Assembly (NCBI RefSeq): GCF_013122565.1
Contig: NZ_CP053258.1
Reading direction: 5' to 3' (one strand)
Length of the DNA: 64,000 nt
Source: Escherichia coli
Lineage (GTDB): Bacteria; Pseudomonadota; Gammaproteobacteria; Enterobacterales; Enterobacteriaceae
A program made the translations under genes and the position numbers. The notes under the pieces were generated by a model. The model was not told the origin of the DNA, did not search any database, and was given only the letters and a program-made list of their open reading frames with translations. Of this stretch, positions 10,910 through 55,395 are shown in pieces. How positions within the stretch are numbered: the first letter of the stretch is position 1; every line of letters starts with the position of its first letter.

Positions 10910-11131
<222 letters not shown>

Positions 11132-11384: not shown

Positions 11385-11472
11385 GGTGAGGTGTCCGAGT
11401 GGCTGAAGGAGCACGCCTGGAAAGTGTGTATACGGCAACGTATCGGGGGTTCGAATCCCCCCCTCACCGCCA
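11385..11472 (+). tRNA. serW: tRNA-Ser (anticodon GGA), 88 nt
   Basis: GGTGAGGTGTCCGAGTGGCTGAAGGAGCACGCCTGGAAAGTGTGTATACGGCAACGTATCGGGGGTTCGAATCCCCCCCTCACCGCCA; long variable arm, T-loop GGTTCGAATCC, 3' CCA encoded. Confidence 0.95.
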
Positions 11473-11480
11473 TATTTAAA

Positions 11481-11513
11481 GAAGAGCTCGTACGAAAGTA
11501 CGAGCTTTTTTTC
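11481..11513 (+). terminator. serW rho-independent terminator
   Basis: Hairpin agctcgtac-gaaa-gtacgagct followed by ttttttt. Confidence 0.8.
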
Positions 11514-11630
11514 GCATAATGCACTCCAGGGGGGTGAGAAGCCCCGACCGGGGTTCGACAACTGGCGCAGCCAGTTGGACAGACCACGAACGCAGTGAGT
11601 GGGCTGCCCGCAGGGCGAGCGAAGCGAGTC

Positions 11631-11696
11631 AATCCCCCCCTCACCGCCATATTTAAAGAAGAACTCGTACGAAAGTACGGGCTTTTTTTTCGCATT
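11631..11696 (+). repeat. Degenerate direct duplicate of serW 3' end plus terminator (copy of 11453-11518)
   Basis: aatccccccctcaccgccatatttaaagaagaactcgtacgaaagtacgggctttttttt differs from the tRNA 3' end/terminator at only a few positions. Confidence 0.85.
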
Positions 11697-11841
11697 TTAT
11701 CTGCCTGTACGGCAGTGAATATGGTGGGCGGGTGGAGTATGTTACCAGTGAATTTCTAAGCTGCCAGTACGGCAGTGAACGTTCGCTGCAACCGCTAGCC
11801 AAGACGGTAGGTTTTTCTAAGCTGCCTGTACGGCAGTGAAC
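11693..11841 (-). CRISPR. Orphan type I-F CRISPR mini-array: 3 repeats (28 bp), 2 spacers (32-33 bp), no adjacent cas genes
   Basis: Minus-strand repeats GTTCACTGCCGTACAGGCAGCTTAGAAA at 11814-11841 (exact), 11753-11780 (1 mismatch), 11693-11720 (degenerate); spacers 11721-11752 and 11781-11813. Confidence 0.9.
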
Positions 11842-11992
11842 TCAAATACTACACGTTTAGCCCGTTGTTAATAAAGCAAAACCATCTCATTCTCATGCTA
11901 CCACCCTTTTTTATCCTTACCTTCCCGCAGCACTAATTATCAACAACTTACCATCATTATTAAAAAAAGGGTCTGAACCTCCTCCACCCCAT

Positions 11993-12030
11993 AAACAAAA
12001 AGTCCGTAACCTCTTTCGAGATTACGGACT
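11993..12030 (-). terminator. clpA rho-independent terminator
   Basis: Minus strand agtccgtaatctcgaaagaggttacggact followed by ttttgttt, just downstream of clpA stop. Confidence 0.75.
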
Positions 12031-12054
12031 TCATCAACCTACCTGACAATCAGA

Positions 12055-14331
12055 TTAATGCGCTGCTTCCGCCTTGTGCTTTTGTGCACTCTGGAATCCG
12101 TAAGTCAGCTCATTTTTCTCTTTATCCAGCGCGACGGTGACCTGACCGCCGTCCACCAGCGAACCAAACAACAGTTCGTTGGCGAGCGGTTTTTTCAGGT
12201 TGTCCTGGATGACACGCGCCATCGGACGTGCGCCCATTGCCCGGTCGTAACCTTTCTCGGCCAGCCAGTTACGCGCTTCCTGGCTCACTTCCAGAGAAAC
12301 ACCTTTCTGATCCAGCTGAACCTGCAACTCGACGATGAATTTATCCACCACCTGATGGATCACGTCAGTTGACAGATGATCGAACCAGATAATGTTGTCG
12401 AGACGGTTACGAAATTCCGGTGTAAAGATCTTCTTGATCTCTTCCATCGCATCGGTGCTGTTATCCTGGTGGATAAGACCAATGGATTTGCGCTCAGTTT
12501 CCCGTACCCCGGCGTTAGTGGTCATCACCAGCACCACGTTACGGAAGTCCGCTTTGCGTCCGTTGTTATCGGTCAGCGTACCGTTGTCCATCACCTGCAA
12601 CAGAATATTGAACACGTCCGGATGCGCTTTCTCGATTTCGTCCAGCAGCAGCACCGCATGTGGATGCTTGATTACCGCATCGGTCAGCAAACCGCCCTGA
12701 TCAAAACCAACGTATCCCGGAGGCGCACCAATCAGACGGCTGACGGTATGGCGTTCCATATACTCGGACATATCAAAGCGCAGCAGCTCAATGCCCAACG
12801 CTTTCGAAAGCTGTACCGTCACCTCTGTTTTCCCGACCCCGGTAGGGCCGGCAAACAGGAACGAACCGACCGGTTTATGTTCGTGACCTAAACCTGCACG
12901 AGCCATCTTAATGGCTTCAGTCAGCGCCTCAATGGCATTATCCTGACCGAAGACCAGCATTTTCAGGCGATCGCCGAGGTTTTTCAGGGTATCACGATCA
13001 CTCTGAGAAACACTCTTCTCTGGAATGCGTGCAATACGGGCCACCACGGACTCAATATCCGCCACATTTACGGTTTTCTTGCGTTTGCTTACCGGCATCA
13101 GGCGTGCGCGAGCGCCCGCTTCGTCGATAACATCAATCGCTTTATCCGGCAGATGACGATCGTTAATGTATTTCACCGCCAGCTCTACCGCCGCACGCAC
13201 CGCTTTTGCGGTATAACGCACGTCGTGGTGCGCTTCATACTTCGGTTTCAGGCCATTGATGATTTGAACAGTTTCTTCGATCGACGGTTCAGTAATATCA
13301 ATTTTCTGGAAGCGACGCGCCAGAGCACGGTCTTTCTCGAAAATGTTGCTGAACTCCTGATAGGTTGTCGAACCAATTACGCGAATTTTACCGCTGGAGA
13401 GCAACGGTTTGATCAGGTTAGCCGCATCGACCTGACCACCAGACGCTGCACCCGCACCGATAATGGTGTGGATCTCATCAATAAACAGGATGCTGTTAGT
13501 GTCCTGCTCCAGCTGCTTGAGCAACGCTTTAAAACGTTTTTCAAAGTCGCCGCGATATTTTGTGCCCGCTAACAGAGAACCGATATCGAGAGAATAAATC
13601 GTACAGTCAGCCATCACTTCCGGCACATCACCCTGAACAATTCGCCAGGCAAGACCTTCTGCAATCGCGGTTTTACCGACACCAGACTCCCCCACCAGCA
13701 GCGGGTTGTTTTTACGGCGACGGCAGAGAACCTGAATAGCACGCTCCAGCTCTTTCTCACGACCAATCAGTGGGTCGATTCCGCCCACACGCGCAAGCTG
13801 GTTCAGGTTCGTCGTGAAATTCTCCATACGTTCCTCCCCACCAGCTTGTTCTTCGCTGTTTGGCTGGCTGCCAGGATCAGAAGACTGTGTCGGCTCGTCT
13901 TTACGCGTGCCATGAGAGATAAAGTTCACCACATCGAGACGGCTGACTTCATGTTTACGCAACAGATATGCCGCCTGCGACTCCTGTTCGCTAAAGATAG
14001 CGACCAGAACGTTTGCACCGGTAACCTCATTGCGACCGGAGGACTGGACATGGAAGACCGCACGTTGCAGTACACGCTGAAAACTCAGCGTCGGCTGTGT
14101 GTCGCGCTCCTCTTCACTGGCAGGCAGAACGGGTGTGGTTTGTTCAATAAAGGCTTCCAGTTCCTGACGGAGCGCAACCAAATCCACAGAACACGCTTCC
14201 AGCGCCTCCCGGGCAGATGGGTTACTGAGCAGCGCCAGTAACAAGTGCTCGACGGTCATAAACTCATGACGGTGCTCGCGCGCTCTGGCGAAAGCCATAT
14301 TTAAACTGAGTTCCAGTTCTTGATTGAGCAT
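12055..14331 (-). CDS. clpA: ATP-dependent Clp protease ATP-binding subunit ClpA (758 aa)
   Basis: ORF 12055..14346; [35 protein letters not shown] from ATG at 14329-14331 with upstream ggaggtg; two AAA+ Walker A motifs ([16 protein letters not shown]). Confidence 0.95.
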
Positions 14332-55316: not shown

Positions 55317-55395
55317 GCCACTGCTTTTCTTTGATGTCCCCATTTTGTGGAGCCCATCAACCCCGCCATTTCGGTTCAAGGTTGGTGGGTTTTTT
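55317..55395 (+). ncRNA. rybB: RybB small RNA (sigmaE-dependent, Hfq-binding), 79 nt
   Basis: gccactgcttttctttgatgtccccattttgtggagcccatcaaccccgccatttcggttcaaggttggtgggtttttt matches the RybB sequence as I recall it, including terminator hairpin and U-tract. Confidence 0.9.

Follow-up and report, generated by a model that had tools for sequence, protein, structure and literature searches.

The DNA analyzed here, a stretch of 64 kb referred to as the window, is an ordinary stretch of an Escherichia coli-type chromosome and carries a type I-F CRISPR array with two spacers directed against the I-F genes cas3f and cas1f. In our best explanation, which we consider quite probable, it is an orphan anti-cas array forming a barrier to the re-acquisition of an I-F CRISPR-Cas system. 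The array is the orphan type I-F array of E. coli, present between clpA and serW in most strains, that was already described as CRISPR4.1-2 or ‘CRISPR3’, and its locus, its leader and its orphan-type terminal repeat are the features that identify it as such. The name CRISPR4.1-2 belongs to the Diez-Villasenor/Mojica nomenclature. It was noted that the array between clpS and tRNASer, named CRISPR3, contains spacers matching Cas1, Cas3 and Csy2 of the Ypest (I-F) type, with all E. coli that lack these cas genes having one or more of them, and it was proposed that CRISPR3 acts as an ‘anti-CRISPR’ against invading I-F systems (Touchon and Rocha, 2010; PMC2886076). Moreover, the locus was placed between clpA and infA, with CRISPR4.1-2 being the single array of strains lacking cas genes (Almendros et al., 2014; PMC3903273). 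The original prediction of an orphan I-F mini-array was correct as far as stated, but it did not recognize this published CRISPR4.1-2/‘anti-CRISPR’ locus and missed the targets of the spacers. For E. coli in general, our analysis adds nothing beyond what is published; its main value is the correct annotation of the locus as a genuine CRISPR array and not an artefact. The array is a textbook case of CRISPR spacers being directed against cas genes of their own type, i.e., of a natural ‘anti-cas’ barrier.

The locus is bounded by serW and clpA (Table 1), and on the plus strand the order is cydC, aat, infA, serW, an RtT-like unit, the array, its leader, the clpA terminator and clpA. Array and clpA are oriented alike, and the strong terminator located between them shields the array from clpA read-through. 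At the other end, the hairpin next to the leader-distal repeat likely represents the 3′ end of the pre-crRNA, and it presumably acts on the CRISPR transcript. Within the leader, a promoter-like site on the minus strand (TTAATA-16 nt-GATAAT, 11963 to 11936) agrees with the consensus at 9 of 12 positions, the assignment being by consensus match only. The part of the window comprising the clpA terminator, the leader and repeat 1 (11814-12054) was aligned to its counterparts in three further orphan loci and to the leader of CRISPR4.1 from two cas-F+ strains, and the mean column identity is 95%. The 45 nt adjoining repeat 1 contain two variable positions, both of them in FDAARGOS_1284, while the other five sequences are identical, and the GATAAT hexamer, i.e., the predicted -10 element, is invariant across the aligned leaders.

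Table 1. Features of the clpA-serW locus in the window.
Feature	Position	Strand	Remarks
infA	10913-11131		
serW, tRNA-Ser(GGA)	11385-11472	+	Locus boundary; ARAGORN; Rfam tRNA 53.8 bits
RtT-like unit	between serW and array		177 nt
Hairpin	11664-11681		U-rich tracts and terminator-like sites on both strands; serW terminator copy
Type I-F CRISPR array	11693-11841	-	Three 28-nt repeats, two spacers
Terminal repeat	11693-11720	-	Leader-distal, degenerate; ATTCACTGCCGTACAGGCAGATAAAATG
Spacer 2	11721-11752	-	Distal, 32 nt; TTCACTGGTAACATACTCCACCCGCCCACCAT; anti-cas1f
Repeat 2	11753-11780	-	One mismatch, A->T in the hairpin loop (GTACA -> GTACT)
Spacer 1	11781-11813	-	Leader-proximal, 33 nt; AACCTACCGTCTTGGCTAGCGGTTGCAGCGAAC; anti-cas3f
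Repeat 1	11814-11841	-	Leader-proximal; GTTCACTGCCGTACAGGCAGCTTAGAAA; no mismatch to the quoted I-F consensus
Leader	11842-11998	-	A+T-rich; homologous to CRISPR4.1 leaders
clpA intrinsic terminator	11999-12032	-	15-bp stem, 4-nt loop, T-rich tail
clpA	12055-14331	-	Other locus boundary; ORF; matches annotated clpA in the comparison loci L001-L006

The presence of three I-F repeats on the minus strand, as originally proposed, is borne out by their coordinates, by start-to-start distances of 60 and 61 nt, by their mismatches to the consensus (0, 1 and 6 for repeat 1, repeat 2 and the terminal repeat, respectively) and by their Rfam scores. Allowing for up to three mismatches, the I-F consensus occurs at two sites in the 64-kb window compared to none in 100 dinucleotide-preserving shuffles. 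Using the Rfam model CRISPR-DR4 (RF01317), which stands for the ‘CRISPR-4’/Ypest repeat, repeat 1 and repeat 2 reach 50.1 and 41.7 bits and are thereby above the gathering score of 35, and the terminal repeat with 26.6 bits (E=0.0045) is below. The latter repeat is indeed degenerate, as had been noted before: of its first 20 bases 19 agree with the consensus, whereas the last 8 nt have diverged, and in register it shows 75% identity to repeat 2 as the reference copy. A fold common to all three repeats is predicted, consisting of a 5-bp stem and a 5-nt loop with energies of -8.6, -7.8 and -8.6 kcal/mol for repeat 1, repeat 2 and the terminal repeat, and the 8-nt handle CUUAGAAA is unaltered in both repeats that would supply the 5′ handles. 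The array is thus of type I-F by its repeat sequence, its unique spacers of ~32 nt, its predicted Cas6f/Csy4-type hairpin and handle and its A+T-rich leader.

That the repeats are due to chance or belong to a non-CRISPR element, such as a REP-like palindrome or a small coding gene, has a negligible probability. ORFs of 49-54 aa do overlap the region and a ‘hypothetical protein’ is annotated nearby in some RefSeq genomes. However, repeat 1 and repeat 2 agree at 28/28 and 27/28 positions with a curated CRISPR repeat family, with 0 such matches expected by chance, the spacing is regular at 60/61 nt, and homology to the long CRISPR4.1 arrays found in cas-F+ strains extends over array and leader. 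The same agreement with the I-F consensus answers the first of two observations that had been named as speaking against the array, i.e., repeats deviating from this consensus. The second one, spacers located inside a coding sequence, was not found either, and the reading of the region as coding sequence was rejected: the overlapping ORFs (49-54 aa and 140 aa) extend over repeats and terminators and also over the tRNA gene serW. At the equivalent place, the RefSeq annotation gives ‘none’ or ‘CRISPR’.

A tblastn search with the six I-F Cas proteins Cas1f, Cas3f, Csy1-3 and Cas6f revealed no homologue in the 64-kb window, and the sole matches obtained there for Cas3f and Cas1f are the two spacers themselves in the form of 10-11-aa fragments. 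The array is therefore an orphan array and not a complete system. The absence of cas genes, originally stated for the interval between infA and clpA, thereby holds for the entire 64 kb, and the description as a minus-strand mini-array without adjacent cas genes is in agreement with both the repeats and the tblastn search.

The complete E. coli I-F locus, as present in LF82, UTI89 and 2015C-3905, has the same site, the same repeat and the same clpA-adjoining leader as the window, but it additionally possesses six cas genes and a CRISPR4.2 array past serW, both of which are missing in the window. In the gene maps of two cas-F+ loci, 2015C-3905 (L001) and FDAARGOS_1284 (L002), the interval has the order clpA, leader, CRISPR4.1, cas1f, cas3f, csy1, csy2, csy3, cas6f and serW. 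The CRISPR4.1 arrays of the cas-F+ loci that were read contain 3 to 36 spacers compared to two in the window. Their terminal repeat is also different: the arrays of L001 and L002 end with ...GGCAGTATTCACA, whereas the ending ...GGCAGATAAAATG is common to all four other orphan arrays examined (K-12, O157:H7, EC1515 and NRZ96606), a conservation that was remarked earlier (Touchon and Rocha, 2010; PMC2886076). The spacers of the arrays of L001 and L002 do not have a match in their own cas operons. The terminal repeat was also considered as a simple deletion junction with the serW-flanking DNA. In L001 and L002, the sequences past the serW terminator (tttttttgtgtgtg... and tttttttgcgccag...) show no clear continuation into the orphan junction ttttttttcgcattttat.

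In contrast to these differences, the published orphan CRISPR4.1-2 array agrees with the window in its site between clpA and serW/infA, its 28-nt repeat, its leader and its terminal repeat, and also in having spacers that match cas1f/cas3f with an I-F PAM while the cas-F genes are absent. The two-spacer content of the window is the same in EC1515 and in other full-length matches. An identical array was not found in 5,426 complete E. coli genomes, the best match covering 147 of 149 positions (98.7%). Compared to the published array, the differences are trivial allelic ones, namely the A->T exchange in the loop of repeat 2, where EC1515, K-12, O157 and NRZ96606 all have the consensus base, and a second private substitution, G1->A, in the terminal repeat; furthermore, the 177-nt RtT-like unit lies between array and serW. 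Features specific to the window are limited to these two point changes and to the neighboring RtT-like repeat.

The two spacers are unrelated to each other in sequence. Their originally quoted sequences were correct, but the length of the leader-proximal one is 33 nt (11781-11813) and not 32; in crRNA sense it reads AACCTACCGTCTTGGCTAGCGGTTGCAGCGAA(C). Spacer 1 matches cas3f of E. coli 2015C-3905 (L001, 9001-9032) at 31 of 32 positions (E=8e-6 against 28 Gb), having its sole mismatch at position 11, outside the seed, and 5′-CC directly upstream; to cas3f of UTI89-type strains, the match is 28/31. Spacer 2 is identical over 32/32 positions to cas1f of E. coli E69 (L007, CP089930.1), which represents a divergent lineage with 91% identity to other cas1f, and it matches cas1f of FDAARGOS_1284 at 31/32 (mismatch at position 4; E=6e-6 against 28 Gb) and cas1f of 2015C-3905 at 30/32 positions, in all three cases with a 5′-CC PAM. 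The seed mismatch at position 4 is found in every cas1f allele examined from cas-F+ E. coli genomes. All protospacers have the I-F PAM 5′-CC adjoining spacer position 1. For E. coli, the I-F PAM rule was given as a GG that adjoins the protospacer at its leader-proximal end, read on the target strand (PMC3506596), which equals 5′-CC on the spacer-identical strand and thus matches the protospacers described here. In both genes the strand matched by the spacer is the antisense strand (cas3f codons 201-212, cas1f codons 33-43).

In a blastn search for phage or plasmid targets (word size 11), both spacers were compared to 72,556 plasmids and the array in its entirety to 50,697 phage records, and this resulted in chance-level partial matches only (E of 3 or more) and in no credible match. 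The one suggestive plasmid match (22/25) is to a cas1f gene on a Vitreoscilla plasmid. Phage and plasmid targets of the spacers were rejected on the basis of these searches. This BLAST comparison had been suggested as a check of the array; while it gave no significant match in the phage and plasmid databases, it led to cas3f and cas1f in the E. coli genomes. The past targets that the spacers were said to record are I-F cas3f and cas1f, with correct PAMs, and not phages or plasmids. Among the GTDB species representatives, the core of spacer 2 was found only in E. coli E69, as the cas1f protospacer, and in one K-12-like MAG contig, as part of an array; one scan of these representatives gave no sign of spacer 2 outside Escherichia.

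The distribution of spacers and targets was followed across the set of 5,426 complete E. coli genomes. Matches to spacer 2, being either the spacer or its protospacer, occur at 2,582 places that are spread over 2,578 genomes, and all 17 cas-annotated rows sampled had a single place. The gene cas1f is present in 241 genomes (4.4%) and never on a plasmid, and about 2,300 genomes (~43%) carry the anti-cas1 spacer. With 2,582 places for 2,578 genomes, compared to 241 genomes with cas1f, at most four genomes can hold both spacer and target. Across genomes, the anti-cas spacer and the cas-F genes are thus nearly completely mutually exclusive. For spacer 1 or its protospacer, 731 genomes with 752 places were counted.

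These numbers also bear on the idea that the array serves as an ordinary distant array for I-F cas genes located on a plasmid or at another site of the genome. The window comprises 64 kb only, and bacteria in general often have distant arrays that are served in trans (Bernheim et al., 2019; PMC7145637). However, the spacers would target precisely those cas genes, which would be lethal or self-curing, and the absence of cas1f from plasmids and the upper limit of four genomes with both anti-cas1 spacer and cas1f argue against such a hidden operon. Moreover, in both cas-F+ loci examined cas1f is located between clpA and serW, the interval which is devoid of cas genes here. Taken together, this makes such a distant operon extremely unlikely. 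Isolated or distant arrays and mini-arrays that are served in trans resemble the array of the window in being short, in lacking neighboring cas genes and in having repeats compatible with known Cas6 and effector proteins (PMC7145637, PMC8616872). In contrast, distant arrays and viral or plasmid mini-arrays co-opt the resident Cas proteins against competitors, whereas the array described here lacks a resident partner and is directed against the partner's genes.

The proposed mechanism of the orphan anti-cas array starts with a leader-driven transcription on the minus strand towards serW, as suggested by the conserved leader and the promoter-like site. In a cell without Cas6f this transcript would be inert. 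Upon horizontal arrival of an I-F cas operon, its Cas6f would cut every repeat after the hairpin, at G20. For this cleavage step, the established knowledge on Csy4/Cas6f applies. Both crRNAs could be completed, an intact repeat providing the 5′ handle CUUAGAAA and the repeat that follows providing the 3′ hairpin; the diverged end of the terminal repeat is located 3′ of the cleavage site and would enter no crRNA. The original prediction that the array could be processed with Cas6f supplied in trans is consistent with the intact predicted hairpins, and the idea of processing in trans is also reported in a review summarizing Almendros et al. (2016) (PMC8616872). The two crRNAs would be taken up by the incoming Csy proteins, and the resulting complex, together with Cas2-3, would be guided to the protospacers with adjoining CC in cas3f and cas1f of the arriving operon. 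In this way, the I-F system would destroy the DNA by which it is encoded or prime spacer acquisition against it, and the net outcome would be a barrier to the re-entry of I-F CRISPR-Cas.

Support for such a mechanism comes from Almendros et al. (2016; Nat Microbiol 1:16081). As summarized in the review, this study reported that plasmids with I-F cas genes are subject to interference and primed adaptation elicited by native orphan arrays, and a constitutive expression of the orphan arrays is attributed to it as well (PMC8616872). The review originates from the same laboratory as the study of Almendros et al. (2016). We infer that the two private substitutions have left the copy in the window competent. 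Applying the general seed rules of type I systems, from which both of the following predictions are derived, the mismatch of spacer 2 at position 4 would favor priming over direct interference for the E. coli cas1f alleles examined, and the mismatch of spacer 1 at position 11 should allow interference with cas3f of the 2015C-3905 type. The strain would accordingly be predicted to resist an I-F cas operon carrying those protospacers.

A role independent of Cas interference is very unlikely. It might consist in antisense silencing of the I-F operon, in a modulation of serW/RtT or in a loop-biased processing by Cas6f. As each spacer has the antisense-strand sequence of its target gene, an unprocessed transcript would be complementary to the mRNAs of cas1f and cas3f, and it could silence an incoming I-F operon before a Csy complex forms. 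Alternatively, convergent transcription into the terminator region of serW/RtT could modulate the expression of tRNA-Ser or RtT, or the loop change in repeat 2 could alter the processing by Cas6f and thereby bias which crRNA is made.

Finally, the array might be a decaying relic without present function, left behind after an I-F system destroyed itself or was deleted following the acquisition of anti-cas spacers. An alternative of this kind, i.e., that gaining such spacers led to the loss of the cas genes, was put forward by Diez-Villasenor et al. (2010), as far as it is recounted in PMC2886076. In favor of a relic, the cas genes matched by the spacers are absent from just this locus, the array is tiny and has a degenerate terminal repeat and two private substitutions, and spacer 2 has a seed mismatch to the cas1f alleles examined from E. 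coli. Furthermore, variants with truncated or mutated spacers exist, namely a 28-nt version in NRZ96606 and TTCACAGG in K-12. The two private substitutions and the lack of an identical array would look like neutral drift of an unused element. On the other hand, the same spacers are kept in ~43% of the complete genomes and in diverse lineages including K-12, O157:H7 and ExPEC, the leader, its predicted -10 hexamer included, shows the same degree of conservation as that of cas-F+ strains, and all hairpins and both 5′ handles needed for two crRNAs are unaltered. It was argued that other spacers are lost fast, whereas the anti-cas ones are specifically kept (Touchon and Rocha, 2010; PMC2886076), and the interference by native orphan arrays mentioned above, as far as described in the review (PMC8616872), also speaks for a present function. 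A relic without function is therefore rather unlikely, and it is a rival to the anti-cas barrier in part only, because this origin is compatible with a present protective function.

An anti-cas barrier helps to explain the absence of I-F systems from most E. coli lineages. In an independent survey of uropathogenic strains from 2025, eight RR1 spacers against I-F cas genes were described, of which two are directed against cas1f, five against cas3f and one against csy3, and the strain groups with those spacers make up 91% of the strains of the survey (PMC12736100). The spacer content can moreover be used as a lineage marker, the window having the combination of anti-cas3f and anti-cas1f spacers in contrast to K-12 and O157:H7, which carry the anti-cas1 spacer only. 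In the orphan array of NRZ96606, the only genome with two places that was inspected, a spacer is duplicated. This array has a third spacer, which also matches cas3f at 31/32 positions with a CC PAM, on the strand opposite to the first protospacer and 50 nt away from it, a placement corresponding to the pattern expected of primed adaptation.

The anti-cas1f spacer of the window array finds a perfect protospacer in cas1f of E. coli E69 (coordinates of all features are listed in the table). This cas1f adjoins an I-F array of 37 repeats, and its identity to the cas1f found in the 241 complete cas-F+ E. coli genomes is only about 91%. The perfect protospacer together with the divergence of the gene that carries it suggests that a divergent Escherichia I-F lineage is the origin or the best target of this spacer. 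The orphan array of E. coli NRZ96606 contains two copies of the anti-cas3f spacer, an anti-cas1 spacer that is truncated to 28 nt and a third spacer, GGAACAATCTTGCAAAGGCTGTGAAAGTTGGC. This third spacer matches cas3f at 31/32 positions with a CC PAM, and its protospacer is located on the opposite strand from the first cas3f protospacer at a distance of 50 nt. This arrangement resembles the outcome of primed adaptation.

Features of the window and of further loci
Feature	Sequence	Position	Strand	Remarks
Protospacer in cas1f of E. coli E69	CP089930.1	924-955		32/32 match to window spacer 2, CC PAM
Orphan array of E. coli NRZ96606	NZ_OZ501612.1	about 11970-12240
CRISPR4.1-2 array on MAG contig	JADFJT010000085.1	1123-1210		Contig labelled only "Proteobacteria bacterium"
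RtT-like unit, 177 nt	window	11513-11689	+	Between serW and CRISPR array; Rfam RF00391
Direct repeat, 59 nt	window	11454-11512 / 11631-11689		Copies 97% identical
naRNA4/CssrE	window	39229-39309	-	Rfam, 71.9 bits, gathering-level match
RybB sRNA	window	55320-55398	+	Rfam, 104 bits, gathering-level match

The RtT-like unit scores 41.8 bits against its Rfam family, slightly below the gathering score of 45, and its 3' end is a second copy of the final 19 nt of the tRNA-Ser and of the tRNA-Ser terminator, which gives rise to the 59-nt direct repeat. Among the loci compared it is absent from K-12, O157:H7 and EC1515; in other E. coli, RefSeq records either a single "RtT sRNA" feature here or two of them. 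Its architecture is similar to that of the tyrT-rtT repeats. The T-stem of serW itself shows a compensatory base-pair difference between the window (11445-11472) and the cas-F+ loci of 2015C-3905 (L001, 2126-2153) and FDAARGOS_1284 (L002, 646-673), being GGGGG/CCCCC in the cas-less loci (window, K-12) and CGGGG/CCCCG in both cas-F+ loci.

On the MAG contig the array, the leader and the serW flank are the same sequence as in K-12 over the approximately 265 nt read, and the contig is probably E. coli DNA, either as a contamination or from a genuine E. coli bin. The RybB and naRNA4/CssrE matches are ordinary E. coli features.
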